A stretch of DNA of 64,000 bases from Candidatus Uhrbacteria bacterium (GTDB lineage: Bacteria; Patescibacteriota; Patescibacteriia; UBA9934): assembly GCA_003518105.1 (NCBI GenBank), contig DOZH01000005.1, positions 40,513 to 104,512 on the forward strand. The letters are read 5' to 3'. Positions within the stretch are counted from its first letter, which is position 1; each line of letters opens with the position of its first letter. Of the stretch, positions 7,477 through 46,063 are shown one piece after another. The notes under the pieces were generated by a model that saw nothing but the letters and a program-made list of their open reading frames with translations, did no database searches and was not told the DNA's origin. A program made the position numbers and the translations under genes.

Positions 7477-7947
7477 ATGGACGCTTCCCTTACTTCCATT
7501 CTCGCCCCCGAAGCCCTCATGATCGACGGTGACGCACCGCCAGTCGAGCCCTACTGGGCACAACTCGGCAAGACAGTGCAAATGCCATGCGGCCAGGTTG
7601 ATCCTGCAACCCTTGTCTTCTTCCAGACAGAGGAGATGAAGAACGGTGATAGCACCCCTGGTCTCGACCTGTCGGACAAGATCCGCCAGGCCAAGCTCAA
7701 GCCTGTCAACGCCAACGTCGCCGTATTCCTTGAGGCCCATCAGGAGTTTCTGGCTAGCGTGCCGAGGGGAATCGATTACCTGGTTTTCACAGAATCGCAA
7801 TTCCTCCGCTGGAACAACCTTCCGTCCTTCCAGTGCTTGCGCCGATGGAAAGACGGGCGATGGTACCCCTTCGACTACATCACCTGGCAAAGATACGGTG
7901 GCGAGGACGCTGCCGTGGCCTTCCGAGTCGACGAACCCACCAAGTAG
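7477..7947 (+). CDS. Hypothetical protein, family A copy 1
   Basis: 156 aa. Paralog of 8616..9062: shared LMIDGDAxPxVEPxWA, PCGQVDP, LFQTEEMK and identical C-terminus VAFRVDEPTK. GGAGATTCACATG ribosome-binding context. Confidence 0.6.
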   Translation: MDASLTSILAPEALMIDGDAPPVEPYWAQLGKTVQMPCGQVDPATLVFFQTEEMKNGDSTPGLDLSDKIRQAKLKPVNANVAVFLEAHQEFLASVPRGIDYLVFTESQFLRWNNLPSFQCLRRWKDGRWYPFDYITWQRYGGEDAAVAFRVDEPTK

Positions 7948-7953
7948 GCCTCT

Positions 7954-8040
7954 GCGTGAGGGTCGAGTAGTGCACTCTACTCCCCTCGCGCCCCCTTCCG
8001 AGGCGTCGAATTATCGACGTTTCAGATCCGGTCAACCACT
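7954..8040 (+). promoter_or_regulatory. Intercistronic double-hairpin element, copy 1
   Basis: GCGTGAGGG-TC-GAGTAG-tgcact-CTACTC-C-CCTCGCGC, then CCCCTTCCGAGG, then CGTCGA-atta-TCGACG, then TTTCAGATCCGGTCAACCAC. Confidence 0.7.
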
Positions 8041-8068
8041 ACGCCGACAACTTCGGCACGGAGACAAC

Positions 8069-8422
8069 ATGTTGTTCGACACCATTACCAGCTTCATCAA
8101 GAATGGCGCTCCTCACCAACTCACTACTGGTGACCATCTCCTGTTCCTCCATCGGGGAAATCCTGGCAATAAGCACTACTCTCTCGAGGTTGTCTTCAGG
8201 ACGGGTGGTTATGGAGCTTCTAGCGGCGACATCTGCGCGGTCCACAATACCTGTGGTTTCGTGCAGAATATCGCGTACTTGCCGATTACCCGTCAGCGTT
8301 GGATCGACGTTCTTGCATCACAAGATCGTCTGGCTGATCGCCTGAACATCGACTTCGTTCTAGGTGAAGTTTCTCCAATGTTCTGCAACAACCTACTTTT
8401 CGACGTGAAGCCGAGGACGTAG
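8069..8422 (+). CDS. Hypothetical protein
   Basis: In-frame ATG preceded by CGGCACGGAGACAAC. 117 aa (MLFDTITSFIKNGAPHQL...). The longer 7646 start runs through the upstream gene and the element. Confidence 0.5.
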   Translation: MLFDTITSFIKNGAPHQLTTGDHLLFLHRGNPGNKHYSLEVVFRTGGYGASSGDICAVHNTCGFVQNIAYLPITRQRWIDVLASQDRLADRLNIDFVLGEVSPMFCNNLLFDVKPRT

Positions 8423-8450
8423 TTTTGGAGAATGCCTTACTAGGCAGTTC

Positions 8451-8490
8451 GCGTGAGGGTCGAGTGGTTTACTCCACTCCCCTCGAACCC
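8451..8490 (+). promoter_or_regulatory. Intercistronic element, degenerate hairpin-1-only copy
   Basis: GCGTGAGGGTC-GAGTGG-tttact-CCACTC-CCCTCGAACC. The lower stem is partly decayed. Confidence 0.5.
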
Positions 8491-8508
8491 ATTAGTGAAC
8501 AAACCCTC

Positions 8509-8600
8509 GCGTGAGGATCAAATGCTGCACCGCATTCTCCTCGCGCCCCCTTCCGAGGCGTCGAATAGTTCGACGTTTCAGATCTGGCCAACCACCCCAC
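8509..8600 (+). promoter_or_regulatory. Intercistronic double-hairpin element, copy 2
   Basis: GCGTGAGGA-TCA-AATGC-tgcacc-GCATT-C-TCCTCGCGC (compensated GAGGA/TCCTC), then CGTCGAA-tag-TTCGACG, then TTTCAGATCTGGCCAACCAC. Confidence 0.7.
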
Positions 8601-8615
8601 ATCCCAGGAGTTTCT

Positions 8616-9062
8616 ATGCTTACCAACCTCATGATCGACGGTGACGCGGCCCCAGAAGTCGAGCCTAACTGGGCTGTGGCTAGCAAGACCGCACACACTC
8701 CTTGCGGTCAGGTAGATCCCACCAAACTCATCTTATTCCAGACGGAAGAGATGAAAAGAGGTGGTCGTTCTGAGGGCACAGTGCTTTCTGACCTGGCTTG
8801 CCAGGCTGGGCTCAACCCCATGAACGCCAATGGGGCCACCTTCCTCAAGAGGCACAAAAAGTTCCTAGCCAAGGTTCCGAAGACGATCAAGTATCTGATT
8901 TTTCCAGAGACGAAATACTTCTGCGGAAATGGATTCTGGTTCTTTCTGTGCCTAGACAGGAGTGCTACCGGGAAGTGGGAATTCAAGCTGAATCGCATCG
9001 TCAACAGCTACTGCGGTCAGTGCGCAATCGTGGCTTTCCGAGTCGACGAACCCACCAAGTAA
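8616..9062 (+). CDS. Hypothetical protein, family A copy 2
   Basis: 148 aa from the ATG after GGAGTTTCT. Paralog of 7477..7947. Confidence 0.6.
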   Translation: MLTNLMIDGDAAPEVEPNWAVASKTAHTPCGQVDPTKLILFQTEEMKRGGRSEGTVLSDLACQAGLNPMNANGATFLKRHKKFLAKVPKTIKYLIFPETKYFCGNGFWFFLCLDRSATGKWEFKLNRIVNSYCGQCAIVAFRVDEPTK

Positions 9063-9068
9063 GCCCCT

Positions 9069-9155
9069 GCGTGAGGGTCGAGTGTTGCACCACACTCCCC
9101 TCGCGCCCCTTTCTGAGACGCCGAATAGTTCGACGTTTCAGATCTGGTCAACCAC
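9069..9155 (+). promoter_or_regulatory. Intercistronic double-hairpin element, copy 3
   Basis: GCGTGAGGGTC-GAGTGT-tgcacc-ACACTC-CCCTCGCGC, then CGCCGAA-tag-TTCGACG, then TTTCAGATCTGGTCAACCAC. Confidence 0.7.
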
Positions 9156-9185
9156 CACGCCGACATGATCGGCACGGAGCACATC

Positions 9186-9494
9186 ATGAAAATTCGTACT
9201 GAAGCTGGTAAGGCCTACAAGTTGGTCGCCGGTGATCGCCTGCGCATCATCGATCGCTCGGATTGCGGCTACGGTTCGTTCAATCTGGAGCTGGAATCGG
9301 CTGTACGCGGCCGTCTTCACTTCATTGAGGATTACGGACCGAACAACTACAGGCGAACCAATGCTCTCTTCTTTTCAGGAGATTGCAGGAACCAGGTTGT
9401 CGACCTCATCTGTTACCTGTCTCACTTGAGCATCGCTCGTCGAGACACCAGCAGTGAGGCGTGCGATTACCTCGAGCTCGCTGCGAGCAAGTGA
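9186..9494 (+). CDS. Hypothetical protein
   Basis: ORF open from 9165. The ATG at 9186 follows CGGCACGGAGCACATC, as in sister genes. 102 aa (MKIRTEAGKAYKLVAGDRLRIID...). Confidence 0.5.
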   Translation: MKIRTEAGKAYKLVAGDRLRIIDRSDCGYGSFNLELESAVRGRLHFIEDYGPNNYRRTNALFFSGDCRNQVVDLICYLSHLSIARRDTSSEACDYLELAASK

Positions 9495-9500
9495 GCCCCT

Positions 9501-9585
9501 GCGTGAGGGTCGAGTGCTGCACCGCACTTCCCTCGCGCCCCTTTCCAAGTCGTGGATTATCGACGCTTTGGATTCGGTCTTCAAC
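9501..9585 (+). promoter_or_regulatory. Intercistronic double-hairpin element, copy 4
   Basis: GCGTGAGGGTC-GAGTGC-tgcacc-GCACTT-CCCTCGCGC. The second hairpin is weakened (GTCG...CGAC). Confidence 0.65.
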
Positions 9586-9598
9586 TAACAAACCAAAT

Positions 9599-10291
9599 AT
9601 GACCACCGTCGCCGCCACAGACCTCAACTACCATCGTTATTCCCTCACCAAATACGATCGCGACATCGTCAACGCTATTCCCTTTCATCGCGAGCTTCAT
9701 GAGCGCCTCGTGTCTATCATCGAAGCTCATTTTGCCGCCACAAAAACCTACAACATCCTGGACCTCGGCGTCGGCACCGGCCTCACGACCAAGCTCATCA
9801 AAGACTATTTACCCCAGTCGCATTTTGACGTCGTCGACTTCTCCGACAACATGTTGCAATGCGCCAAACAACGCCTCGGCCCAGTCAACGTTGATTATTT
9901 CTTAGGTGACTATGCCCTCCTCGACTTCACCAAAAAATACGACCTGATTACTTCCGTCATCGGCTTACATCACCAAGACATGGCTGGCAAGCGCATACTC
10001 TTCGCTAAAATCTATAATCTCCTTGAGCCCGGTGGCCTCTTCATCTTAGGCGACCTCATGACGCACCAAAACCCGCAGCTTAACGCCGTAGCCACAGCTC
10101 GCCACTATCATCACCTAGTCGAGCGCGCCACAGACGAGCAAACTCTCACCGACTGGGCGCACCATCATCTCTATCTCAACCAACTCGACACTCTCGAGGA
10201 TCAAAAGCTGTGGCTCGAATCAGCCGGCCTCAAGGTCGAAGTCGCTTTTCAAGAGTGGCACACGGCATTGCTTGTTTGTCGCAAAACCTAA
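9599..10291 (+). CDS. Class I SAM-dependent methyltransferase (last gene of cargo operon 2)
   Basis: Motif I ILDLGVGTGLTTKLI and LEPGGLFILGDL. ORF open from 9461, but that stretch overlaps the upstream element; the ATG at 9599 is preferred. Confidence 0.75.
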   Translation: MTTVAATDLNYHRYSLTKYDRDIVNAIPFHRELHERLVSIIEAHFAATKTYNILDLGVGTGLTTKLIKDYLPQSHFDVVDFSDNMLQCAKQRLGPVNVDYFLGDYALLDFTKKYDLITSVIGLHHQDMAGKRILFAKIYNLLEPGGLFILGDLMTHQNPQLNAVATARHYHHLVERATDEQTLTDWAHHHLYLNQLDTLEDQKLWLESAGLKVEVAFQEWHTALLVCRKT

Positions 10292-11049
10292 TACCCCGTC
10301 GTCCACACAATCTGCCAAATCATTTTGAGCGTTTTCGCAATCGCCTTACTTTCAAGAGTTAACGCAAACTCTTCATCTTGCGTATAAGAAATAAAACAGA
10401 CCACGTTATCATACAGTAACACCTCGCCCTCAAAGTTGTAGGTCGACGCTGGTACCAGACGCGACTCTCGGTCATGAGTTGCGTCTTTTGCTTTAAAAGC
10501 GTAGCCCTCGGCATTATCCGGAATAATCACGCGACCACTTACGTCATTTTTTTTGCGTTGTACTCGATACTCATTTTCCCAAAACTCATTTAACACTTTA
10601 GATCTCGCTGTTAATCTTTCAACTCCCACAAACGCCGCAATCGCCTTCTCTTTACTCAGCAACGAATCTCGATAAACATTTTTAATCCCTTCAACCCCTT
10701 CCACATACTTAATCTTCGGCTTAAAAACCCCATTCCGGCTAAGCGACAATAACTCCGGCAACAAATCGTCGAGCTTGGCTAATCTATTCTTCAGCAACAA
10801 CGCCAACTTCTCTGGTGGCTCAGCCACATATAACGCCCGCTTCCCCGTCACACTCTTCGTTAATAGTTGTTTCTCCCCCAGTCTCTCCACCACTCCATAA
10901 AGCGTAGTTCTATTGAGTTTGGTCTTCCTCGCCATCTCTAAAACACTGGCCGGTCCCAGCTCCAAACAGGCCGCATAAACCACCGCTTCATCTTCCTCAA
11001 GACCAATATTCTTCAGTTCTTCGTTCAAGTTTAACATATATGTCGGCAA
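10288..11049 (-). CDS. TrmB-family HTH transcriptional regulator (paralog 3)
   Basis: LKNIGLEEDEAVVYAACLELGPASVLEMARKTKLNRTTLYGVVERLGEKQLL. Confidence 0.75.
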   Translation of the reverse strand: MPTYMLNLNEELKNIGLEEDEAVVYAACLELGPASVLEMARKTKLNRTTLYGVVERLGEKQLLTKSVTGKRALYVAEPPEKLALLLKNRLAKLDDLLPELLSLSRNGVFKPKIKYVEGVEGIKNVYRDSLLSKEKAIAAFVGVERLTARSKVLNEFWENEYRVQRKKNDVSGRVIIPDNAEGYAFKAKDATHDRESRLVPASTYNFEGEVLLYDNVVCFISYTQDEEFALTLESKAIAKTLKMIWQIVWTTGY

Positions 11050-11218: not shown

Positions 11219-11764
11219 ATGCGCAGTTCTTTCATTCTCAGCAGCGAATCCCGGGGCGTACTCGTGGTTGGTCCGAATACCACCGAACGCTTATCCGGCA
11301 CCTGTTTTCGTGGCGGTCGCCAGGCCGGAGACTTCCTCCACTGGCGTTCCCCCGACGATGTCTTCGCCGACGAATACGTGCGACGCGAATTTCTGGCCGA
11401 CGTTGGTGAAGTGATCGGGCAGCGCGGGCAAGACCGGGCACGGCGCTCGCAAAGCTTGACCATCGTCTGTCCCGGTCAGATCGGTTGGCGCGGCACTCAT
11501 CCGAGTTCACTCTACAGCGCCCAGCAGCTCGAGCAGTTCCAGCCGAATAGGCGGAGCACGGCCTGGCGAATCAAGCCGGGCGTGGCTCTAGCACCGCTGA
11601 CTCACGATCTCACCATCATCTACGACCTGTTGTGGAATGACGACGATGAGTGGGCGGTGATTGTGGGCTCGATGTACCCCGGTCCCGACATCGGTGTCCT
11701 GCGCGGTAACATCACCGAGAACGAAGGCATTGTGTTCTTTGCTTGGGACAACCCCGGCGAGTAA
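11219..11764 (+). CDS. Hypothetical protein (GC-rich cargo 3)
   Basis: 181-aa ORF after GGAGTCAATC. No recognisable motif. Three overlapping minus-strand ORFs look like GC artefacts. Confidence 0.5.
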   Translation: MRSSFILSSESRGVLVVGPNTTERLSGTCFRGGRQAGDFLHWRSPDDVFADEYVRREFLADVGEVIGQRGQDRARRSQSLTIVCPGQIGWRGTHPSSLYSAQQLEQFQPNRRSTAWRIKPGVALAPLTHDLTIIYDLLWNDDDEWAVIVGSMYPGPDIGVLRGNITENEGIVFFAWDNPGE

Positions 11765-11779
11765 GTCGAATGAGTTCGT

Positions 11780-11870
11780 GGCGTGAGCGTTAAGAAGATT
11801 CCCGTAGACTTCTCAGCTCTCGCGCCCCCTTCCGAGCTGGCGAATAATCGTCATCTCGGAATCGCAACAT
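11780..11870 (+). promoter_or_regulatory. Intercistronic double-hairpin element, copy 5 (divergent)
   Basis: GGCGTGAG...AGAAG-attcccgtaga-CTTCT...CTCGCGCC, then CCCTTCCGAG...CTCGGAA. Same lower stem and CCCTTCCGAG box, different upper stem. Confidence 0.6.
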
Positions 11871-11889
11871 CACATCATCGAGGTTCACC

Positions 11890-12360
11890 GTGAAAATTCT
11901 CATCATCGAAGATGACCCCAAGCACTTCGCCGACGCCAACGCTTTCTTCTTTGGTCGCGAAGGCATCACCGAACTGGTCGTAGTCAAGACTTTTGACGAC
12001 GCACGCCCACACCTCTTCGACAGCGAGTATTTGAAAAGGAAAGCAGCTGACGGAGTGATTTCTGACGTCACCTTCCCGCGCTGGTACCTTTCAAAAAAGC
12101 CGTTGCAGATCGGCGTCGCCATCATGTCGCTTTGTCAAAAGCGTGGCATCCCCTGCGTGCTCAACACCGACGGCTACCATCACAACGACGAACTCGATTG
12201 GATCTGTACGTTGGGGCGTGAACTCGATTGGCCTGAAATAGTCGATTGTGGCAATCATCCGGATCAGCGAATTGAGACCAAGGACTGGGATTTGGCTTGG
12301 TCGACGCTACAAGAGTTGATGGCCGCAAAAGCCGTTACTACAGCGGTCGGTGCCCCTTAA
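11890..12360 (+). CDS. Receiver (CheY-like) domain-like protein, stand-alone
   Basis: GTG start. MKILIIEDDP...GVISDVTFP resembles a REC-domain N-terminus and phospho-acceptor region. The assignment is tentative. Confidence 0.4.
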   Translation: MKILIIEDDPKHFADANAFFFGREGITELVVVKTFDDARPHLFDSEYLKRKAADGVISDVTFPRWYLSKKPLQIGVAIMSLCQKRGIPCVLNTDGYHHNDELDWICTLGRELDWPEIVDCGNHPDQRIETKDWDLAWSTLQELMAAKAVTTAVGAP

Positions 12361-19008: not shown

Positions 19009-19025
19009 ACCGTGTCTAAACTATC

Positions 19026-19100
19026 AGGACGACGTCGAACATCGTCCTTATCAATGTTTGCAGGCCTAGGACGACTCCCGATGTCGTCCTTTGCACTTTT
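19026..19100. repeat. Double-hairpin REP-like element (AGGACGAC...GTCGTCCT family), copy 1
   Basis: AGGACGACgtcgaacaTCGTCCT + TATCAATGTTTGCAGGCCT + AGGACGACtcccgatGTCGTCCT + TTGCACTTTT. Abuts the stop codon of the HD gene. Confidence 0.7.
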
Positions 19101-28095: not shown

Positions 28096-28115
28096 TAATC
28101 TGTGGACAAACACCC

Positions 28116-28150
28116 AGGACGACGCGAGACGTCGTCCTTTGCATTTCCAT
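28116..28150. repeat. AGGACGAC...GTCGTCCT hairpin element, single-hairpin copy
   Basis: AGGACGACgcgagaCGTCGTCCT + TTGCATTTCC, directly after the recombinase gene. Confidence 0.6.
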
Positions 28151-30620: not shown

Positions 30621-30878
30621 ATGCCTCGCCATACAGATCAGAGCACTAAGAACGAGATATTGTCAGCTATTAAAGACGGCCTAAGTGTGGCCGACGCTGC
30701 CATTAAATATACTAAACCTACTCAAACCATTTATGCTTGGCTACGAGGCCAAGTAGATAATATTGGCACCAGTGCTCTTGAAGTCGCTAAGTTACGGCGA
30801 GAAAACACTGAACTTAAAGAAATAATCGGCTGGCTGACGTTAGAAAAACGTCGCGGGGAAAAAAATCACAGAGGCTAG
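30621..30878 (+). CDS. IS3-family transposase OrfA (HTH)
   Basis: 85 aa with an HTH region and leucine-zipper-like tail (LEVAKLRRENTELKEIIGWLTLEK). Ends just after an A7 run (30859-30865). Confidence 0.8.
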   Translation: MPRHTDQSTKNEILSAIKDGLSVADAAIKYTKPTQTIYAWLRGQVDNIGTSALEVAKLRRENTELKEIIGWLTLEKRRGEKNHRG

Positions 30879-30885
30879 GCGTCGT

Positions 30886-31704
30886 ATGTCTGCCAGTAAA
30901 AACAAGGCCGAGCTAGCTAAAAAGCTCGGTGTTAGCCGTTCTTCACTCTACTACCGCCCTAAACGTCCCAAAGATGACGAAGCTCTCAGAGACCGCATCC
31001 TAGCCGTCCAGACAGAGCATCCAGCCTACGGCCACAAGAGGATTGCCATGGCTTTAAAGCTCAACAAGAAGCGTATCCGACGAGTCATGAAGAAGTTCAA
31101 TCTTCGTCCTCGTATCCTGCGGGGTCGGCCAACCAAGCGAGATGACAGAGGCAATTTGCCAACAAAAGTACCCAATCTCGCTAAAACTATCTGCCCAATC
31201 CGAGCTAACGTGCTCTACGCGGGCGACTTCACTTACATTCCCTGGGATAATGGCTTCGTTTATGTAGCCACTGTGCTTGATGTTTTTACGCGAGAGATTG
31301 TGGGCTGGCACATTGGCCTCCACCACACCACCTCCCTCATTACGGAGGCCTTCCTAGATGCTGTACGGAGAACTGGAGTGGCACCCCAGATCTTCCACTC
31401 GGACCAGGGTAGCGAATATGTGAGTGGCAGCTACGAGCTACTCCTGGCAGCCCACGGCACTAAGGCCTCACAGAGCAAGAAATCATCCCCTTGGGAAAAC
31501 TGCTACCAAGAGTCGTTCTACAGCGGCTTCAAGCTCGAGTTTGGCAATCCAACTCGTTTCCATGACTTAGGCGAGCTTGCCGAAGCAGTCCACCGCCAGA
31601 TACACTATTACAACACAAGGAGAATCCACACCGCACTCAAGATGCCACCAGTTACTTACAGGGTTCACCAAGAGAACAAAATAGCAGTCCTCATGACCGC
31701 CTAA
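30886..31704 (+). CDS. IS3-family transposase OrfB (DDE/rve integrase core)
   Basis: YAGDFTYIPW...LDVFTREIVGW...HSDQGSEY...ENCYQESFYSGFKLE...YNTRRIH. The frame is open from 30844 and is +1 relative to OrfA. Confidence 0.85.
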   Translation: MSASKNKAELAKKLGVSRSSLYYRPKRPKDDEALRDRILAVQTEHPAYGHKRIAMALKLNKKRIRRVMKKFNLRPRILRGRPTKRDDRGNLPTKVPNLAKTICPIRANVLYAGDFTYIPWDNGFVYVATVLDVFTREIVGWHIGLHHTTSLITEAFLDAVRRTGVAPQIFHSDQGSEYVSGSYELLLAAHGTKASQSKKSSPWENCYQESFYSGFKLEFGNPTRFHDLGELAEAVHRQIHYYNTRRIHTALKMPPVTYRVHQENKIAVLMTA

Positions 31705-34502: not shown

Positions 34503-35279
34503 ATGATTACCAACACCGAGGTGAAACAAAATCTTTACACTTCCCTCAAGGAACTCGGTCTCACCGAGAGCGAAGCCAACCTCTACCTCACCTCCTTAAC
34601 CCTCGGCTCCGTCACCATCGTCTCTTTAGCCGAGCATCTCAGCATGCCCAGGCCCAACGTCTACAAAGTCATTGCCGGGCTGGAAAAGCACGGTTTAACT
34701 AAGTTTTCCGAACGTAAAAAGCAATCTCGCACTTTTGTAGTGGAGCCGCCAACCGTCGTCCTGGAACTATTACGCCGTAAACGCGAAGCCATGGCCAGCT
34801 TGGACCAAACCCTCGTCGGTTCCATGCCAGACCTGCTCGCGCTCTACCATCAAGGCGAAACCCCCACCAAAATCAAAGTTTACGAGGGGGAGGACCAGTG
34901 GAATAAAATTTTCTTTAAAGTTCTGGACGAAGCTAAAGATAAAATCGACTTCTTTGGTTCCGCCGACGCTTTCATCGGCCTCATCTCCTGGGAAACCGAA
35001 CTCGAATGGATCCGCCTCCGCACCAGCAAAAACATTCACATGAATTCCCTCCTCACCCCCGGCGCCGACGCTGCCACGCTCGTTCAAAACGACAAACTCC
35101 AAATGCGCACCACGCGCATCTTCCAAGGCACCCTCCCCTTCGTCACCGGCTTCATGCTCTACGCCAACAAGGTAATCATCTGGCAGCCCAAAGCCCCCCT
35201 CGCCGTCCTCGTGGAAGATGAATACATCGTGGCCATGCTCCGCAGCATCTTCGCCGCACTGTGGACACAAAGTGCATAA
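34503..35279 (+). CDS. TrmB-family HTH transcriptional regulator (paralog 4)
   Basis: LKELGLTESEANLYLTSLTLGSVTIVSLAEHLSMPRPNVYKVIAGLEKHGL. Confidence 0.75.
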   Translation: MITNTEVKQNLYTSLKELGLTESEANLYLTSLTLGSVTIVSLAEHLSMPRPNVYKVIAGLEKHGLTKFSERKKQSRTFVVEPPTVVLELLRRKREAMASLDQTLVGSMPDLLALYHQGETPTKIKVYEGEDQWNKIFFKVLDEAKDKIDFFGSADAFIGLISWETELEWIRLRTSKNIHMNSLLTPGADAATLVQNDKLQMRTTRIFQGTLPFVTGFMLYANKVIIWQPKAPLAVLVEDEYIVAMLRSIFAALWTQSA

Positions 35280-35285
35280 ACTCTC

Positions 35286-35360
35286 AGGACGACTTCGGGA
35301 GTCGTCCTGGGCCTGCAAACATTGATAAGGACGACGTTCGACGTCGTCCTTTGCACTTTT
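35286..35360. repeat. Double-hairpin REP-like element, copy 3 (core inverted)
   Basis: AGGACGACttcgggaGTCGTCCT + GGGCCTGCAAACATTGATA + AGGACGACgttcgaCGTCGTCCT + TTGCACTTTT. The spacer is the reverse complement of that in copies 1 and 4. Confidence 0.7.
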
Positions 35361-35378: not shown

Positions 35379-35705
35379 TTAAATAGCTAGTATTTTTCTT
35401 AACTTATCTTTCACTAACTTATAAGCAGTAGTCTCTAATTTACCAAGTTCTCCCAACACAATCTTTTTCTGTAAAGTAGCAATCTTATCCGTCCTAATAA
35501 ATGAGTCAGCCTTCAGGCCATTAGTTTGACTAGCCTTAATCCGAACATCAAAATTACCCAATTTGGCCTGTTTGACGGATGAAATGAATACCACAATGAA
35601 ATCCTCACCGCCTTTTTGTTCATAGAGCACCAAGCCGGGCCGTACTTTATGGCCAGACAGGTCGCTAAAAGGAAACGGTATTAAGACAATATCTCCTTTA
35701 GACAT
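35379..35705 (-). CDS. PemK/MazF-family toxin
   Basis: MSKGDIVLIPFPFSDLSGHKVRPGLVL, typical of the MazF/PemK N-terminus. Confidence 0.8.
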   Translation of the reverse strand: MSKGDIVLIPFPFSDLSGHKVRPGLVLYEQKGGEDFIVVFISSVKQAKLGNFDVRIKASQTNGLKADSFIRTDKIATLQKKIVLGELGKLETTAYKLVKDKLRKILAI

Positions 35706-35949
35706 AGCTTTTCTTAAGATCAGCTACTGAATATAGATCTGGTTCCTCGTTTAGGAAATCAAAACTCCGCGACAAAGCATTAATATTTGTAATCTCGTTC
35801 AAATTTTTATTGTAATGATTGGGAAATTGAATGACAATGGCATCAATAGAATTACGTCGACCAATTCCAAAAACTTCTCCGTGCATTTTTACACGGTCAA
35901 TCACCTGCTTAATATTCTTTCGAGCCTCAGTAGTAGTAATAACCTGCAT
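35698..35949 (-). CDS. Putative cognate antitoxin
   Basis: 8-nt overlap with the toxin gene. MQVITTTEARKNIKQVIDRV resembles Phd/YefM-type N-termini. ORF open to 36021. Confidence 0.55.
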   Translation of the reverse strand: MQVITTTEARKNIKQVIDRVKMHGEVFGIGRRNSIDAIVIQFPNHYNKNLNEITNINALSRSFDFLNEEPDLYSVADLKKSYV

Positions 35950-36022
35950 ATGTACAAATTGTACAATATTGCACAATGAAGCGCAAGACCAGGCCAAAAT
36001 AAGCCAAATAAACATCTCCATC

Positions 36023-36067
36023 CAAACAAAGAACCGCCCACCTGAGCAAGCGGCTCAGTGTGGGCGG
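36023..36067 (-). terminator. Intrinsic terminator of the radical SAM operon
   Basis: On the minus strand: CCGCCCACACTGAGC-cgctt-GCTCAGGTGGGCGG followed by TTCTTTGTTTG. Confidence 0.65.
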
Positions 36068-36125: not shown

Positions 36126-37646
36126 TTACGCAAAAGCACACTGCCAAGCCTCAATCGTCTGCACATCGGACGACTCCTTCACCCACCGGATCATGCCCTC
36201 CTCGATCTTACGAGCAGTCATGTCGTTGGTGTTGTGGTGGGTGCTGAACAGGTTGTAGCCTGCCCAGTCGTCCGGGTGGACGATGTTGTGGCCGTTGCGT
36301 TCGAACCACCTGGTGCCGGGCAGCATGGTGGCGGACAATGGCAGCGCCGTGTCGAGGTACCCGTCCACAATCAACTTCCTGGAAGCAGCCATGTCTTCCG
36401 CGAACGTCTCGTGTGTCTGGTCTGGCGTACCGACCATGATGCTCGTCAACACGTACACTTTCGCCGAGCGCAGCTTTTTCAGGTTCTCCTTGCTGTTCTC
36501 GTACTTCGTGGTCATCGACCCTGCTGAGCTCTGCTTCTCGTTTCCCTGCCGCGGATTAAACGGCACATACAGTGAGAAACACTTGCCCGGCCTACCGTCG
36601 TTGTACGCCATGATAGCCGCAGTGACCTCATCCGACAGGCTCTCGAACTCGACGCCTCCGTTGTCGGACCACGAAAGTCCCCGCTGCTTCATCTCCCCGA
36701 GCAAGGGAATGAAGAACTCCTTCGGGCGGGAGAGAATCGCGTCGTCTTGCAGCACGATCTCCTGGTAGCCGCAGGCCACAAAGTGGTCGAGCTGCTGCCG
36801 GATCTTGTCCCAACCTGACTGCGTGACTTTCTGTTCCGGACGCCCGGCAAAGCAGAATTCGCAATGACGGTAGCACCCACGGCTGGCCATCCAGTCAATC
36901 GACTTCAACCCCGAGGGGAAGTTGTGCGTCGGCGGGGTGGAGTAGCCAGCGTCGGCCAAGAGGTCGCAGTTCATGACCGGGTACGCCTCCATCTTCTGGA
37001 AGCCCCCTGGCACGATCTTGTCCTTCAGTCGACCGGCCATCATGGCCTCAATGGTCGTGATTGCATCTCCCTCTGCCACGTGGTCGACCCACGGGTTGTC
37101 CCGCACGAATTTCACGGGATCGGCCGTGATGTGCTGACCGCCCATGACAACGCGGACGTGCGGCAATTCCCGCTTGATCCGCGCGCCGAGCGAGGTCGCA
37201 GCCAAGTAGTTGGCGGACGCCGCGAGCGGAATACCCACGGCCTCGATGTGGTGCCGGCGCAGGTACTCAATCGTCTCCTCCTCGGGGATGCCGATCCGCG
37301 CGATGATGCGCTGCACGCTGCCATCTTCCCTGAACGCCGAGTACTTCTTGATGAAGTCAGTCGACGACAGCTTGTGGAAGTCGTACATCTTCTCCTCATG
37401 CACTTCCCCCCACGTCCGGTTGAGGGCTTCCTCGTGGATGCCGCGCTGACCTGGCCACAGCGTGCGAACGCAGAGCTCACGCCGTTGCCAGCCACCGTTG
37501 TGGACGGACTCGTCCAGGAAGTGGACCTTCCAGCCCTTATTGAAAAGTAGCGAGGCCATCAAGGCCGGACCAATCTGCACTCCGCCACGGGGCGGCTCAT
37601 GGATGGCATCGACCTGGCGCAGGGGAGAAACGAATGCGACGTTCAT
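36126..37646 (-). CDS. B12-binding-domain radical SAM enzyme (GC-rich cargo 5)
   Basis: 506 aa. N-terminal cobalamin-binding-type region, then ASRGCYRHCEFCFAG (CxxxCxxC). Several overlapping ORFs are GC artefacts. Confidence 0.75.
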   Translation of the reverse strand: MNVAFVSPLRQVDAIHEPPRGGVQIGPALMASLLFNKGWKVHFLDESVHNGGWQRRELCVRTLWPGQRGIHEEALNRTWGEVHEEKMYDFHKLSSTDFIKKYSAFREDGSVQRIIARIGIPEEETIEYLRRHHIEAVGIPLAASANYLAATSLGARIKRELPHVRVVMGGQHITADPVKFVRDNPWVDHVAEGDAITTIEAMMAGRLKDKIVPGGFQKMEAYPVMNCDLLADAGYSTPPTHNFPSGLKSIDWMASRGCYRHCEFCFAGRPEQKVTQSGWDKIRQQLDHFVACGYQEIVLQDDAILSRPKEFFIPLLGEMKQRGLSWSDNGGVEFESLSDEVTAAIMAYNDGRPGKCFSLYVPFNPRQGNEKQSSAGSMTTKYENSKENLKKLRSAKVYVLTSIMVGTPDQTHETFAEDMAASRKLIVDGYLDTALPLSATMLPGTRWFERNGHNIVHPDDWAGYNLFSTHHNTNDMTARKIEEGMIRWVKESSDVQTIEAWQCAFA

Positions 37647-37679
37647 TGTGAACTCCGTAGTTTGGTTGCTGTCGTTGTT

Positions 37680-37758
37680 GTTTCAGTGTCGATCCGCCGA
37701 ACCGTTCGGCGTCTCGATGCTGGGCGCGAGAAGAGACGAGTGCTGTCTCGACTCACGC
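37680..37758 (-). promoter_or_regulatory. Intercistronic double-hairpin element, copy 6 (minus strand)
   Basis: Minus-strand reading: GCGTGAG-TC-GAGAC-agcact-GTCTC-T-TCTCGCGC, then CGCCGAA-cgg-TTCGGCG (compensated relative to CGTCGAA/TTCGACG), then ...ACGGAGTTCACAATG. Confidence 0.65.
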
Positions 37759-37769
37759 CAGGAAAGTTG

Positions 37770-37988
37770 TTACAGATCTCGCATGAGTTCTTCGGCCAGT
37801 TTTTTACGAAAGGCTGAAACTTCGGACTTAAACCCCCATCTACTAGAGGTCCAACTATACGTCACTCCGTGCCGAAAAAAATCACTGGGGTAGAACGGCA
37901 CGACCTCCTCAGGCAGGCTTCCCAGACTGCGTTTGGGAATAATTGTTTGTTGACCGTCATGGTGATTAATTGTCCTGAACAGCAACAC
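37770..37988 (-). CDS. Hypothetical ORF, probably the true C-terminal part of the upstream gene (frameshifted)
   Basis: The -1 frame relative to 37862..38263 reads protein-like (IIPKRSLGSLPEEVVPFYPSDFFRHGVTYSW...KKLAEELMRDL). It stops 11 nt before the conserved element, as in sister operons. Confidence 0.4.
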   Translation of the reverse strand: MLLFRTINHHDGQQTIIPKRSLGSLPEEVVPFYPSDFFRHGVTYSWTSSRWGFKSEVSAFRKKLAEELMRDL

Positions 37989-38263
37989 CGCCCAATCTCG
38001 CCATTTTCTTCAACCATGACATCCCACCACAGAGCTGGCATCTCACCGAACCTGAGTTCGATCTTCTTTTCTCCTACATCGAGGTATCGCCAGGGATACC
38101 CGCTGTTGTCCCACATGCCCTTTGAGGGTATTTCGGTGATCAGTCCATCAGGCAGCTCCTGCGTTTTAAGTTCATCCTTATATCGGTCTGCGATATCGTT
38201 GGCAGTCTTGATCACATTGTTTGAGTAGCCACTATTGCTGCTACATTCATGAATCGTTGCCAT
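37862..38263 (-). CDS. Hypothetical protein, first gene of cargo operon 5 (3' part doubtful)
   Basis: AGGAGGCCACCATG start context. After about residue 92 the translation turns Cys/Arg-rich (GRCCCSGQ...CLRRSCRS), while the -1 frame looks more natural. Confidence 0.45.
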   Translation of the reverse strand: MATIHECSSNSGYSNNVIKTANDIADRYKDELKTQELPDGLITEIPSKGMWDNSGYPWRYLDVGEKKIELRFGEMPALWWDVMVEENGEIGRCCCSGQLITMTVNKQLFPNAVWEACLRRSCRSTPVIFFGTE

Positions 38264-38334
38264 GGTGGCCTCCTGAGTCTTTGTGTAACTTGTCGAACCG
38301 GGCCAATCCCTGCTCGACTAAATACAATACCATT

Positions 38335-38363
38335 TTTTACCTCTTTCGTCAACTAATATGTGC
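38335..38363 (-). promoter_or_regulatory. sigma70-like promoter of cargo operon 5
   Basis: Minus-strand reading: TTGACG, 17-nt spacer, TATTGT. Confidence 0.4.
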
Positions 38364-38423: not shown

Positions 38424-39239
38424 TTGACAACATGGTCATTTTTGGCTAAGATGACTTATATGACCAATCCCAAAGAACTCTTAAGCTACTTCTCCGTCAC
38501 GCCCGACGAAGCCGATATTTACTTAGCTTTGCTTAAACTCGGCACCGCCGCCGTGTCAGAAATTGCCAGTAAAATTAAAAAAAACCGCACCGCCACGCAC
38601 TTTCACCTCAAAAAACTCCTAGCTAAAGAGTTAGTTATCGAATCCAATCACGGCCGCACTCTACTCTACACCGCCATTCCACCAGCCGATCTTGCCGCTC
38701 GTTTCGACCGCTTAACTACAGACTTTAAGAGCCTCGTCCCCCAGCTCGAAGCCCTCCAAACCATCGAAGTCGACGCCCCCCGCGTCCAAGTTAGCGAATC
38801 GCGGGCCGGCTACTTCAAAGTTTATGATGAAATCTCTTCTCTCCCTGAAGGTTCAACTTTCTACGTCATCGAAGGAGCGACAGCATTAAATAGCGAGCTG
38901 ACTCTCTTAAGCAACACCGAAACTACTAACTTCTTCTCCAAAATCATCGCCCGCAAAATAGCCACTAAACTCATCCTCACTGCTGAAGCCACCCAAATCC
39001 CCAACACCCTCATCTCGCCCACCAACCTCGTCTTACTCCACCAGCGCGAAATGAGTGTCCGCACCTATCCAGAATCAGCCCTACCCTTCCAGGGCCTCAC
39101 TATTATGTACGGCAGCACCCTCGCCTACCTCTTCCCGCAAACCAACTTGGTCGTCACCATCAAACACGCCGGCATCGCCGACTCTTTTAAGGCTACTTTC
39201 GACACTCTCTTCACCCTCGGCCAGGAATATAAGTTCTAA
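38424..39239 (+). CDS. TrmB-family HTH transcriptional regulator (paralog 5)
   Basis: VTPDEADIYLALLKLGTAAVSEIASKIKKNRTATHFHLKKLLAKELV. Likely start at 38451 or 38460. Confidence 0.7.
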   Translation: MTTWSFLAKMTYMTNPKELLSYFSVTPDEADIYLALLKLGTAAVSEIASKIKKNRTATHFHLKKLLAKELVIESNHGRTLLYTAIPPADLAARFDRLTTDFKSLVPQLEALQTIEVDAPRVQVSESRAGYFKVYDEISSLPEGSTFYVIEGATALNSELTLLSNTETTNFFSKIIARKIATKLILTAEATQIPNTLISPTNLVLLHQREMSVRTYPESALPFQGLTIMYGSTLAYLFPQTNLVVTIKHAGIADSFKATFDTLFTLGQEYKF

Positions 39240-39371: not shown

Positions 39372-40385
39372 CTACAGATCATCACGCCCAGGGCGGTACA
39401 TCTGCAAGTATGCCTTCGTTTCCTCCGGCGACACGAATTGGCGGTGGCTGGTGTCCCTCGCATTATTGTGCGTGTCCATCGACCCGTCCGGCTTCATGTA
39501 GCCGTACGTTGCTTCGGTCTCAGACTCGTTCCCAATCGCGAGGTCGCCGAGCATGACTCGGATCCCGCTCTCGCAGTGTTTGAACTCGAACGTCCGCCCT
39601 TGGGCGTTGTGACGTGCAAATTCCGACACAAACGTGAAAGCGTTGCTCTTCATCACGTCGGCCACCAGCTCGTCGAACTGGGCTCGGTGGTCATCTGTCC
39701 ACTTCATGACTTCCTGACTGCCAGGTGTGGTCTGCTCATTTCTAATTGGCAGACTAAACATGTCACTGAAGTAACAGATCCCGACGCCGAGACGGGCGGC
39801 CCAGCTGACAAACTCCTCGACCTGTTGCACAGAATCGATGAACCCGTCAGCCAACACCGTCCGCGTCATCACCCGCATGCCCTTACGGACAATCGCGGGG
39901 ATTAACGTCTCGAAGTCTACATCGGCCATCGCGGGACCACTGATCACCTCCTTCTGCTCGCGCGTCAGGCCGTGTACGGAGAGGTTGATATCCTTGAGCC
40001 CCATCTCAGCCAGCCGGTCAAGGAACGTCTGCCCGCCGCAGCCCATGATCGGCCGAAGAAGTTTAACGGCGTTCGTGTACACCGCCAGGAGCTCCAGCTC
40101 CACCCCGCGCGCCTCGGTCCGCTCCCGCACGATCCGCAGCGATCCGAACAACTTCCCGGGCGCGTCGGTGGGCTCCCCACCCCCGGTCAAGATGACCTTG
40201 CGGCCACCGTTCTCGAGGTAGATGTCGAGGTTGTCCTCGAACCGCTGCAGGAAAGCCTCTTGTCCCGCCTCGATAACGACCGGCCGAATGGTCGGGCTGC
40301 AGAACGTGCAGCGCCCGTCGCTGCAGAGGTTCGTGAGCTCGACCTTCATTTCTGTCCCTGAAAAGCTAATAGGCTTGCAGTCCAT
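39372..40385 (-). CDS. Radical SAM-like enzyme with a CX4CX2C cluster motif (GC-rich cargo 6)
   Basis: VELTNLCSDGRCTFCS near the N-terminus, then ILTGGGEPT (GGE-type SAM motif). AGGAGGTCACCATG start context. Confidence 0.65.
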   Translation of the reverse strand: MDCKPISFSGTEMKVELTNLCSDGRCTFCSPTIRPVVIEAGQEAFLQRFEDNLDIYLENGGRKVILTGGGEPTDAPGKLFGSLRIVRERTEARGVELELLAVYTNAVKLLRPIMGCGGQTFLDRLAEMGLKDINLSVHGLTREQKEVISGPAMADVDFETLIPAIVRKGMRVMTRTVLADGFIDSVQQVEEFVSWAARLGVGICYFSDMFSLPIRNEQTTPGSQEVMKWTDDHRAQFDELVADVMKSNAFTFVSEFARHNAQGRTFEFKHCESGIRVMLGDLAIGNESETEATYGYMKPDGSMDTHNNARDTSHRQFVSPEETKAYLQMYRPGRDDL

Positions 40386-40570
40386 GGTGACCTCCTAGGT
40401 CGGTTATTTGTTGTGTAACTCGGGCCCGGTTGCTATCCCCAGGCTGTAACCATAATATCCTAAAAGCGGACTTTTGTCCAGAAAAAAGACACTAAATTAT
40501 AGTAAATTACCAAATAGCTTGTGTTAGTTAGCTAATATGCTACACTACTGTTGTCTAAATAACGGACAGT

Positions 40571-41308
40571 ATGAATACAATCACCTCTCTCACTCGTTTG
40601 GGCCTCTCCACCAACGAGGCTAAAATCTACGTTTGCCTCCTAAAAATCCTGGAAGGTACCGTCTTCGAAATCGCTAAACACTCCGGTATTCCTCGCACGA
40701 CCACTTATACCACCCTCGAATCTCTCAAAGTTCAGGGCCTAGTTACTGCTTTTCGCAAAAATAACGTGCAGTATTTTACACCCGAGAATCCCAAGCAAAT
40801 CCTCACTATACTTCAACACAAACAAGAAATCATCAATGAAATTCTCCCGTCTTTACAGGCCTTATCCCTCGGCACAGACGTTCAGCCATCCGTCAAAATG
40901 TTCACTGGTACACAGGGCATGAAGCTGGCTTTTGAGGACATCCTGGATACTCTTGAGCAAACAGACCAGCGCATTCTTTATGCTGCCGCTTTTCCTGATG
41001 TTATGGATGCTTTGCCTAGGTATTATCACTCTTGGGTTAAGCGTCGTGAAGAGCTTGGCGTAACCACAAAAATGATTCTGCCGGAGTCATCGCGCGAACG
41101 CCGGGCTTTCTACGAAGGGCATAATCGCCAAGTAAAGTTCATGCCCGAGCCGTATCTCTTTGAATGCGCCATGGACATTTACGGCCATAAAATCGTCTTC
41201 TTTGCTCTCCGCGAAGGTACCACCTACTCCATCATTCTCGAATCTCCCACTATCGCCGCCGCCTTTCTCAAATTCTTCCTCTTTGCCTTTGACCACCTCC
41301 CAGAATAG
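40571..41308 (+). CDS. TrmB-family HTH transcriptional regulator (paralog 6)
   Basis: LTRLGLSTNEAKIYVCLLKILEGTVFEIAKHSGIPRTTTYTTLESLKVQGLV. Confidence 0.75.
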   Translation: MNTITSLTRLGLSTNEAKIYVCLLKILEGTVFEIAKHSGIPRTTTYTTLESLKVQGLVTAFRKNNVQYFTPENPKQILTILQHKQEIINEILPSLQALSLGTDVQPSVKMFTGTQGMKLAFEDILDTLEQTDQRILYAAAFPDVMDALPRYYHSWVKRREELGVTTKMILPESSRERRAFYEGHNRQVKFMPEPYLFECAMDIYGHKIVFFALREGTTYSIILESPTIAAAFLKFFLFAFDHLPE

Positions 41309-43328: not shown

Positions 43329-45983
43329 ATGACATCATCTTCTCCCGCCAAAACTTTCCTTATTCTCGACGGCAATGCCCTGCTCCATCGCGCTTGGCAC
43401 GCCATTCCACCACTCACCACCAAAGACGGCCGCGTAGTCAACGCTGTTTACGGCTTCATCATGGTTATTGAAAAAATGCTCAGTCAACTTAAGCCCGACT
43501 ACATGGCCGTCGCCTGGGACTTGCCTGGCAAAACCTTCCGTCATGACGAATACGTTGAATACAAGTCACAGCGCGAAAAAAAGGCCCCAGAACTCTACGC
43601 TCAAATCCCCATGATTCAAGAGGTTCTCAAAGCCTATCACCTCCCATCACTTTCGGTCCCCGGCTTTGAAGGCGACGACATTTTGGGCACCATCGCTACG
43701 CTCAACAAACCACTCGGTATCAAGACCCTTATCGTCACCGGCGACCTTGATGCTCTCCAGCTAGTCGACGACACCACGCACGTCGTCTTCTTCGTCAAAG
43801 GCCTCTCCCAAACCACGCTTTACGACACTGCTGCGGTGGAGGCTCGCTATCACCTCCGACCTAACCAACTTATCGACTACAAAACACTCATCGGCGACCA
43901 TTCCGACAATCTCCCTGGTGTAGCTGGCATTGGTGAAAAGTCCGCCCTCGAACTCATCCAGCAATTCGGCACGGTCGACGGTATCTTCGCCAATCTCGAG
44001 ACCGGCATGGTTCCTTCCAAGTACGCTAAGAAGCTCACCGGCAAGCAGGACGTGGCCAAACAAATGAAGCGCCTCGTCACCATCGTCCGCAACGTCCCAC
44101 TCGACAATTTCGACGTCACTCAGGCCGTCGTTCAACCTCCACACCTCGATGATCTCATTCCCCTTCTCCAAGATCTCGAGTTCCACACCATCCTCAAAAA
44201 GTACCTCCCAGCCACAGCCGAACCCATAAGCCCTCCCCCAGCCATGGGGGAGTTGGAGGGGGCCGTTAAGGTGCCAGCAATAGTTCGTGCGCCAAAAACT
44301 TCGCTCGCCAAACTCGGCGCACTTTCCGATCTTAAAACCGAAAAACTCGCCATTCTCCTCACCAACAAAATCCAACAAGATCTCTTCAGCACCGGCGGCC
44401 TCGCAAGCATTGCCCTCACCGACGGCGAAACCACCTTCATTGCCGAATCGCCGACCCCAGAAGTCATGGCTGACATCGTCAAACTATTATCGACCGCCAA
44501 TCTCATCATCGCCCACGACCTCAAGGCTATCTGGCACACTTTCGCCAAGGCCAGCGTCGACGTCACCTCAGCACTCAATCGTCCTTGTTTTGACACCATG
44601 GTTGCTGCCTACCTCCTCTCTTCCGGCGAACGAGCCATGGCCTTCGCCGACATTGTCCGCGAAACTCTGCACTCCGAGCTGACTGACGACGTTGTCTCGA
44701 CCCTCAGTATTCTTCTCACCTTGTCGATCGCTCTCCAAGCCAAGCTCGCCCACGTTGGCATGACTAAACTCTCCACCGAGATAGAAATGCCGCTCATCGG
44801 CGTCCTCTTCCAAATGGAGCACACCGGTATCGCCGTGGATAGCTCCATTCTGCAAGAACTCTCCAAAAAATTCGCCATTACTCTCGCCAACTTAACCACC
44901 AAGATCTACGCCGCGGCCGGGAAAGAATTCAACATCCAGTCCCCTTCGCAGTTAGCCGACATTCTCTACGTCGACCTCGCTATTCCCACCAAAGGCATCA
45001 AAAAAACCAAGAGCGGCTTCAGTACTGCCGCCCCCGAACTCGAAAAAATAACCGCTCTTCACCCTATCGTCGCCCTCATCGGCGAGTACCGCGAAATCGC
45101 CAAGCTCAAAAACACCTACGCCGATTCCCTTCCTCTCCTCGTTGGTGCCGACGGTCGTATTCACGCCGAGTTCAACCAGTGTATCGCCGCCACCGGTCGT
45201 CTCTCATCATCAAACCCGAATCTGCAGAATATTCCTGTTCGTTCCGAGCTCGGCCGTGAAATCCGCAAAGCCTTCGTTGCCCCTGCCGGTCGTATCCTCG
45301 TCAGCGCCGACTATTCGCAAATCGAATTACGCTTGGCTGCTGTTCTCGCTAAGGACACGGGTTTCATCACCGCCTTCCGGGACAACGCCGACATTCACAA
45401 ACGCACCGCTGCCGAAATGTGGGGCATCCCCGAGGCCGAGGTGACCAAAGAACAGCGTTACGCCGCTAAAGCTATCAACTTCGGCATTCTCTATGGCATC
45501 GGTGCCCGCGCCTTAGCACGTTCATCGAAGGTGAGCTTCGAAGAAGCGAAAGGGTTTATAGACCTCTACTTCCAAGCCCACCCCGGCATTCGTGGCTTCA
45601 TAGATGCCATGAAGGCCAAGGCCCACGCCGACGAATACGTGGAAACTCTCTACGGCCGCCGTCGTTATCTGCCAGAAATCAACGGCAATATGCCCCAGCT
45701 GGTCGCCATGGCCGAACGAATGGCTATCAACATGCCAGCTCAGGGCACGCAAGCCGATATCATCAAAATCGCCATGCGTCGTGTACAAGATTGGCTCACC
45801 ACCTCTGGCCTCACAGCGACGCTTCTCCTCCAGGTTCACGACGAACTTGTCCTGGAAGCGGACCTAGTCGACGTCCCCGTAGTCTCGCAAAAAGTTCAAG
45901 AAATCATGACCTCAGTCATCACCCTCGACGTCCCTCTCTTGGTCGACGTGGAAACCGGCACTAACTGGGGAGATCTAAAATAA
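43329..45983 (+). CDS. polA: DNA polymerase I
   Basis: 5'-nuclease N-terminus (LILDGNALLHRAWHA), polymerase motifs DYSQIELRLAA and LLQVHDELVLE. 884 aa. Confidence 0.95.
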   Translation: MTSSSPAKTFLILDGNALLHRAWHAIPPLTTKDGRVVNAVYGFIMVIEKMLSQLKPDYMAVAWDLPGKTFRHDEYVEYKSQREKKAPELYAQIPMIQEVLKAYHLPSLSVPGFEGDDILGTIATLNKPLGIKTLIVTGDLDALQLVDDTTHVVFFVKGLSQTTLYDTAAVEARYHLRPNQLIDYKTLIGDHSDNLPGVAGIGEKSALELIQQFGTVDGIFANLETGMVPSKYAKKLTGKQDVAKQMKRLVTIVRNVPLDNFDVTQAVVQPPHLDDLIPLLQDLEFHTILKKYLPATAEPISPPPAMGELEGAVKVPAIVRAPKTSLAKLGALSDLKTEKLAILLTNKIQQDLFSTGGLASIALTDGETTFIAESPTPEVMADIVKLLSTANLIIAHDLKAIWHTFAKASVDVTSALNRPCFDTMVAAYLLSSGERAMAFADIVRETLHSELTDDVVSTLSILLTLSIALQAKLAHVGMTKLSTEIEMPLIGVLFQMEHTGIAVDSSILQELSKKFAITLANLTTKIYAAAGKEFNIQSPSQLADILYVDLAIPTKGIKKTKSGFSTAAPELEKITALHPIVALIGEYREIAKLKNTYADSLPLLVGADGRIHAEFNQCIAATGRLSSSNPNLQNIPVRSELGREIRKAFVAPAGRILVSADYSQIELRLAAVLAKDTGFITAFRDNADIHKRTAAEMWGIPEAEVTKEQRYAAKAINFGILYGIGARALARSSKVSFEEAKGFIDLYFQAHPGIRGFIDAMKAKAHADEYVETLYGRRRYLPEINGNMPQLVAMAERMAINMPAQGTQADIIKIAMRRVQDWLTTSGLTATLLLQVHDELVLEADLVDVPVVSQKVQEIMTSVITLDVPLLVDVETGTNWGDLK
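44231..44270 (+). repeat. In-frame mini-palindromic repeat (PPAMGE element) inside polA
   Basis: CCCTCCCCCAGCCATGGGGGAGTTGGAGGGGGCCGTTAAG. Near-identical copies at 46728 and 60185. Hairpin CTCCCCCA/TGGGGGAG. Confidence 0.75.
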
Positions 45984-45988
45984 CTCAA

Positions 45989-46063
45989 AGGACGACTTCG
46001 GGAGTCGTCCTAATCAATGTTTGCAGGCCAAGGACGACTTTCGATGTCGTCCTTGTGTTTTGT
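45989..46063. repeat. Double-hairpin REP-like element, copy 4
   Basis: AGGACGACttcgggaGTCGTCCT + AATCAATGTTTGCAGGCCA + AGGACGACtttcgatGTCGTCCT + TGTGTTTTG, directly after polA. Confidence 0.7.

Follow-up and report, generated by a model that had tools for sequence, protein, structure and literature searches.

A probable frameshift in the orphan first gene of a TrmB-paired radical SAM operon from Candidatus Uhrbacteria

A minus-strand operon on Candidatus Uhrbacteria contig DOZH01000005.1, within the 64,000-nucleotide (nt) stretch of DNA analyzed here (the window), raises the question of what its first gene encodes. The open reading frame (ORF) of this gene, which lies upstream of a gene for a B12-binding radical SAM enzyme, runs from an ATG at 38263 to a TGA at 37864-37862 (133 codons) and has a Cys/Arg-rich tail reading GRCCCSGQ...FFGTE. 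Four codons ahead of the stop, the zero frame contains the heptamer T_TTT_TTC (37880-37874), and the -1 frame remains open beyond it until a TAA at 37772-37770, 11 nt before the start (GCGTGAG, 37758) of a conserved hairpin element. An initial annotation made from the letters alone had described this ORF, its -1 frame, the heptamer, the 11-nt gap and the radical SAM gene, and all of these were borne out; the heptamer is real and in frame at the given distance from the stop, with its position shifted by 1-2 nt from the "about 37873-37879" of that annotation. The tail might be a genuine peptide, one of two C-termini made by frameshifting, or the mark of a broken gene. We consider it probable that a lineage-specific accessory gene was inserted here, that it bears a genuine frameshift mutation and that it is a damaged gene.

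The coding frame of the first gene

The -1 frame of the first gene is interrupted by 9 stops in its initial 84 codons and then by none in 79 sense codons (38009-37773), giving together with the TAA an open stretch at 37770-38009 on the minus strand. Stop-free -1-frame runs of at least 80 codons are rare, making up 15 of the 1050 -1-frame runs in the window's genes.

We scored the frames with a codon model trained on 43 genes of the window, which ranked the true frame best in 98.6% of 126-nt segments of real genes. From 38263 to about 37994, the codon log-odds are +21.9 for frame 0 compared to -31.6 and -70.7 for the other two frames. From 37993 to 37860 the -1 frame is favored, and over the roughly 120 nt between 37993 and 37874 it reaches +5.2 compared to -6.9 for frame 0, where true frames average +12.9 +/- 6.3 per 126 nt. 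Frame 0 within the tail is about 3.2 standard deviations under real in-frame segments, while the N-terminal part of the same gene scores normally. Guanine-plus-cytosine (GC) content at the three codon positions agrees: the N-terminal part shows 0.52/0.37/0.56, and the tail shows an inverted pattern for frame 0 (0.55/0.60/0.37) and a normal one for the -1 frame (0.60/0.36/0.55). By both measures, an in-frame N-terminal coding part of about 91 codons (37991-38263, minus strand) gives way to a zero-frame tail that, including the TGA stop, occupies 37862-37990 on the same strand.

A likelihood scan of all switch points peaks at 27.8 after codons 89-92 (37997-37988, minus strand), within GAGATTGGGCGGTG, where the frame most likely breaks. 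Placing the switch at the heptamer gives 14.3-14.7, 13 log-units worse. The coding signal leaves frame 0 about 115 nt before the U UUU UUC heptamer is reached, and the change in -1-frame stop density coincides with the change in codon signal. Because the frame switch precedes the heptamer by this distance, the Cys-rich tail is out-of-frame sequence: it is what an out-of-frame reading of ordinary coding sequence gives, as when GTG TTG CTG is read as TGT TGC TGT, and no genuine peptide. The sequence itself and its frame-specific coding signal are directly demonstrated.

The position of the -1-frame stop also matches the spacing seen at other genes. In the seven other genes that precede the hairpin element, the distance from stop to GCGTGAG is 6-31 nt; the 11 nt from the -1-frame stop fit this range and the 103 nt from the zero-frame stop do not. 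When the window is compared with a 91%-identity relative (locus L002), homology resumes exactly at TAACAACTTTCC, which holds the -1-frame stop.

An orphan gene in a variable operon slot

The conserved anchor gene of the operon encodes the radical SAM enzyme (506 aa, ATG at 37646; 36126-37646, minus strand), which matches PF02310 (E 2e-10) and PF04055 (E 1.5e-7) and carries a CX3CX2C motif. Its N-terminal B12-binding domain and radical SAM core place it in class B, and C258, C262 and C265 are invariant in 14 homologues. Among solved structures, TokK is the nearest in sequence, with the similarity confined to the B12 domain. The protein belongs to a separate family that is widespread in bacteria of the candidate phyla radiation (CPR) and in DPANN archaea and is paired with TrmB in the bacterial loci examined.

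We compared the slot upstream of this gene in seven orthologous loci from about six species, with 76-50% identity to the window's enzyme (L011, L007, L012, L008/L013, L009 and L014 at 76, 74, 71, 65, 56 and 50%). In all seven, the radical SAM gene stands directly behind a divergent TrmB gene, and the intergenic region of about 175-220 nt holds no upstream gene; L015 has no credible upstream gene either. In the closest relative (91%; L002-L005 and L010), the slot is filled by an unrelated 237-260-aa REC-like protein, followed by the same hairpin element. The divergent TrmB gene, found in the window at 38451-39239 on the plus strand (PF01978, E 7e-10), is present in L002, L007, L008, L009 and L011-L014. 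The enzyme's conserved partner is this regulator, not a peptide.

Upstream of the slot lie a promoter-like site and a leader. The promoter-like site (38324-38352, minus strand), which reads TTGACG-17-TATTGT, carries a TG extension and is oriented divergently to the TrmB gene, is conserved in L002, L007, L011 and L012. It is followed in the window by a 5′ leader hairpin, GUCGAGCAGGGAUUGGCCCGGUUCGAC (38292-38318, minus strand), and then by a Shine-Dalgarno sequence, AGGAGG, at 38274-38269. In L007, L011 and L012, this promoter and leader are followed immediately by the radical SAM ORF; the L007 leader ends ...caggaggccaccATG, as in the window, and leads straight on into the ORF.

The occupant of the slot in the window is an orphan. 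A word-index search of 5.8 billion protein clusters with the frame-corrected 164-aa query returned only the self-match; the 133-aa query, run exhaustively with HMMER against 1.84 billion representatives, found itself and two spurious matches (a plant PPR protein and a giant repeat protein). Scans of JGI metagenomes and IMG/VR and a tblastn search against phages yielded no homologues, nor did tblastn against all fetched loci. Neither frame matched Pfam, NCBIfam or PADLOC, and AlphaFold2 modeled the repaired protein, without an alignment, at a mean predicted local distance difference test score of 33. This absence of homologues and the varying occupancy of the slot are both direct observations.

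We propose that an orphan accessory gene of about 164 codons came by insertion to fill the first slot of a TrmB-controlled operon, beginning exactly at the start codon of the operon and ending at the conserved 3′ hairpin element, and that its original product of about 164 residues would have ended at the TAA at 37772-37770. A one-base change of frame in the DNA near GGGCGG (37997-37988) would then have displaced the C-terminal half to the -1 frame, whose open stretch from about 37991 on would be this presumed original half. Translation from 38263 would now pass into the Cys/Arg-rich tail, 41-42 codons read out of frame, and terminate at 37862. The gene would most likely be a recent pseudogene or, at best, the source of a truncated N-terminal product; the radical SAM gene should be unaffected, with its own Shine-Dalgarno sequence after the hairpin element. 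We infer that the halves were once one ORF, that a single-base indel parted them and that the product is non-functional.

The locus resembles frameshift-disrupted accessory genes, such as recent bacterial pseudogenes, in having one frame break in an otherwise open coding region, a downstream frame that is still intact, and an annotation by gene callers as a truncated product with a nonsense tail. Unlike in those cases, no intact homologue proves the ancestral ORF here, and the gene occupies a precisely bounded slot of a regulated operon.

Several points weigh against a frameshifted insertion. The codon model rests on just 43 genes, all from the same window. The -1-frame coding signal is below average (+5.2 per 120 nt compared to about 12.9 per 126 nt) and is near zero over the final 30 codons, which is the main weakness of the argument. 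Neither half of the gene has a homologue, so no orthologue carries both as a single ORF, and an intact allele of about 164 aa was not found among the 5.8 billion protein clusters, the 1.84 billion representatives, JGI metagenomes, IMG/VR or phage genomes. Finally, the sampled populations are all nearly clonal, and fixation of the frameshift is therefore uninformative on selection.

Other explanations for the tail

The annotated 133-aa ORF might be true and complete, with a real Cys-rich tail and an open -1 frame that is coincidental. The ORF is uninterrupted from ATG to TGA and has a strong Shine-Dalgarno sequence; this is the form in which gene callers and NCBI annotate it, and an orphan gene may have atypical codon usage. 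However, frame 0 scores about 3.2 standard deviations too low in the tail while the N-terminal part is normal, the pattern of GC by codon position is inverted there, and the changes in stop density and codon signal fall together; the 103-nt spacer before the element would also be left unexplained. We regard this reading as improbable.

We give a similarly small chance to a split gene with two functional halves, in which the C-terminal half would still be made, either through independent initiation at a GTG (37988), giving 72 aa, or through non-canonical recoding of low efficiency near 37991. The estimated switch point coincides exactly with the GTG, and for 79 codons the -1 frame has stayed fully open, ending beside the element; an open frame is equally predicted by a very recent mutation. 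By inspection, the GTG has only a weak Shine-Dalgarno-like GCGAG upstream, and no X_XXY_YYZ site is present in 38009-37988.

Programmed -1 ribosomal frameshifting at the U UUU UUC heptamer, as raised by the initial annotation, or slippage during transcription of its T7 run (37881-37875), is very unlikely as a source of two C-termini. As at the bacterial programmed -1 sites of dnaX and IS3-family orfAB, a canonical zero-frame X_XXY_YYZ heptamer, here four codons before the stop, is followed by an open -1 frame. Unlike at those sites, there is no hairpin or pseudoknot 5-9 nt past the heptamer and no GGAGG or other Shine-Dalgarno-like stimulator upstream of it, and the coding signal switches about 115 nt ahead of the heptamer. 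The 116 nt from 37885 to 37770 fold no better than shuffled sequence (z = -0.54), and the sole sizeable hairpin begins beyond the zero-frame stop, about 20 nt downstream. Nor does coding stay in the zero frame until the heptamer and pass to the -1 frame only there: the best switch is at 37997-37988, and there is no slippery site at the switch itself. Such heptamers are also expected by chance: the window's ordinary genes contain 46 in-frame X_XXY_YYZ heptamers in 15,782 codons, or 0.39 per 133 codons, and the same ORF has a second one, C_CCA_AAC, at 37937-37931. A T7 run is, in addition, short for efficient transcriptional slippage. We therefore rejected frameshifting at the T7 run on the early switch point, the missing stimulatory structure and the chance-level heptamer, which we judge incidental (37874-37880, minus strand).

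An assembly or sequencing indel, with an intact ORF of about 164 aa in the real genome, is suggested by the source being a metagenome-assembled genome and by the short G runs that adjoin the break. The exact 133-aa product is nevertheless present on ten contigs of 20 kb to 1 Mb (NCBI entry HCC83512.1, annotated Candidatus Uhrbacteria), and a one-residue variant is found on an eleventh contig from a groundwater metagenome. Across an 850-nt alignment of the window with a Logan assembly (SRR6487970) and an ENA groundwater assembly (SRR2177968), we observed one single-nucleotide polymorphism and no indels. Assembly error is unlikely because these independent assemblies carry the same DNA, an identity that is directly demonstrated across different pipelines and separate runs, and the 5.8 billion protein clusters hold no intact allele. 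We rejected it on this agreement and give it only a slim chance. Of a frameshift near 37990 by either assembly or mutation, as had been suggested, the mutational form is supported, with the best switch at 37997-37988, and the assembly form is unlikely.

A RiPP (ribosomally synthesized and post-translationally modified peptide) whose Cys-rich core is modified by the adjacent enzyme, another early proposal, would fit a small ORF that has 6 Cys among 42 residues and immediately precedes a class B radical SAM gene, but it is scarcely credible and was rejected: the tail is not in the coding frame, the precursor is strongly disfavored because the slot is empty in seven orthologous loci and holds a REC-like protein in the 91% orthologue, the weak matches to RiPP C-methyltransferase models lie far under the maturase cut-offs (TIGR03975, 26.7 against 281.85; ApyD, NF050148, 14.9 against 750), and a Pfam scan of the enzyme reported no SPASM or RRE domains. 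Compared to class B RiPP maturases and their precursors (TIGR03975 rSAM_ocin_1 and the proteusin methyltransferases), the locus is alike in placing B12-binding and radical SAM domains beside a small ORF; it is unlike them in that the small ORF is not co-conserved and the enzyme belongs to a separate family that scores far below the cut-offs.

The hairpin element and turnover at TrmB-paired operons

The element between the orphan gene and the radical SAM gene is about 85 nt long (37679-37763, minus strand) and scores 69.6 bits (E 3.6e-18) with our covariance model R1. It consists of hairpin 1 (GCGUGAG...CUCGCGC) and hairpin 2, which is like the operon's 5′ leader hairpin, and is followed on its 3′ side by an A/C-rich spacer and GGAG (37656-37653, minus strand). 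In an alignment of eight distinct copies, compensatory changes occur in 7 of the 18 predicted pairs and are seen in hairpin 2. Hairpin 1 contains a G.U pair, implying a structure formed in the sense-strand RNA.

Further copies lie in the window at 7946-8041, 8447-8596, 9061-9156, 9493-9588 and 11777-11869 on the plus strand and at 29507-29431 on the minus strand, and in relatives at L007:8101-8184, L011:7562-7644 and L012:4165-4233. Among the copies that the covariance model detected, the minus-strand one at 29507-29431 comes after a monocistronic 177-aa gene, those in L011 and L012 come after the radical SAM gene, and that in L007 lies between an extra 175-aa gene and a gene for 2-hydroxyacid dehydrogenase. 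As copies stand behind these further genes, hairpin 1 behaves as a 3′-end element of such GC-rich accessory genes, and the whole element re-creates a leader for the next gene.

A search of Rfam returned only tRNAs at the gathering threshold and one chance microRNA match (E 3.3), with the element unmatched. The other-species homologue (L016/L017) of the window's 156-aa gene (7477-7944) does not have the R1 element, so the element appears to be restricted to the Uhrbacteria lineage of the window. We found nothing relevant in the literature on CPR bacteria and TrmB, Parcubacteria B12-radical SAM enzymes, Uhrbacteria radical SAM enzymes or intercistronic cassettes. In one plus-strand operon of the window, two paralogous orphan genes (7477-7947 and 8616-9062, 53% identical) are each followed by the element, and hairpin 1 occurs once more, in degenerate form, at 8447-8502. 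This arrangement suggests local duplication of gene-plus-element units in the 7477-9062 operon.

The window encodes five TrmB-family regulators (6549-7319 and 10288-11049, minus strand; 34503-35279, 38424-39239 and 40571-41308, plus strand), each facing a small, GC-richer operon in divergent orientation, and the element of about 85 nt separates genes within these operons. Where they could be annotated, the downstream or sole operon genes encode enzymes, namely one methyltransferase, one 2-hydroxyacid dehydrogenase and two radical SAM enzymes. In the 11219-12360 operon, the second gene is only weakly REC-like. The extra upstream genes of the TrmB operons have no family match, and the five TrmB paralogues proved too dissimilar in alignment to be used for scanning loci. 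REC-like proteins without a recognizable output domain occur at L002:5160-5870 and at 11890-12360 in the window, in different TrmB operons of two species, and are weakly related to each other (pairwise E 1e-4).

The region around the radical SAM gene is hypervariable as a whole. Downstream of the intrinsic terminator that closes the operon (36031-36056, minus strand), the window has a Phd/YefM-MazF toxin-antitoxin pair (35379-36021, minus strand), and the same place in the 91%-identity relative is taken by a choline-kinase/APH-like gene (L002:7691-8653). A second radical SAM gene and its TrmB gene (39372-41308) are absent from that relative.

Among close relatives, then, the first slot is occupied by an orphan gene or a REC-like gene or is empty. 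This variation suggests cassette-like gene turnover, possibly by recombination between the similar leader and element sequences. We tentatively extend this to a possible cassette-like system in Uhrbacteria, in which TrmB promoters and the hairpin leader might serve as expression sites where mostly orphan genes could be inserted, swapped and lost with ORF-level precision, bounded by the start codon and the uncatalogued, leader-re-creating RNA hairpin element. The frameshifted gene would then be a decaying cassette.

Such a system would share features with integron cassettes (an ORF plus attC) and with intercistronic or 3′ stabilizer hairpins of the repetitive extragenic palindromic (REP) type: unrelated promoterless ORFs share a slot behind a fixed promoter, and a conserved structured repeat follows each ORF. 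In contrast to these, the G.U pairs and covariation point to an element that acts at the RNA level on the sense strand, and its copies are most alike within one operon. By inspection, the attC R″/R′ cores (RYYYAAC/GTTRRRY) are absent from the ends of the eight element copies. No IntI integrase was found among the few neighboring proteins scanned against Pfam, in which no search was aimed at IntI.

Two other features of the window lie outside these operons. An IS3-family element at 30621-31704 (plus strand) carries orfA, of 85 aa, and orfB, of 272 aa and with an rve domain, which meet at an A7 run (30859-30865). Its orfB is in the +1 frame of orfA, not the -1 frame, and a canonical IS3 -1 frameshift would therefore not join the two; inactivation of the element or an unusual length of its A run may account for this. 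Paired AGGACGAC-N6-GTCGTCCT hairpins at converging gene ends (19019-19098, 28113-28146, 35279-35358 and 45982-46061) make up a second repeat family and are probably bidirectional terminators.

For the first gene of the radical SAM operon, our analysis corrects the annotation, as the 133-aa "hypothetical protein" has a nonsense tail, and removes a tempting but unsupported story of a RiPP or of recoding. By itself, a frameshift of this kind is ordinary and matters little. The surrounding architecture may matter more, with gene-level turnover at a fixed, regulated slot of a CPR genome and a structured RNA element that is absent from Rfam. If this holds generally, it would help to trace how accessory genes are gained and expressed in ultra-small symbionts.

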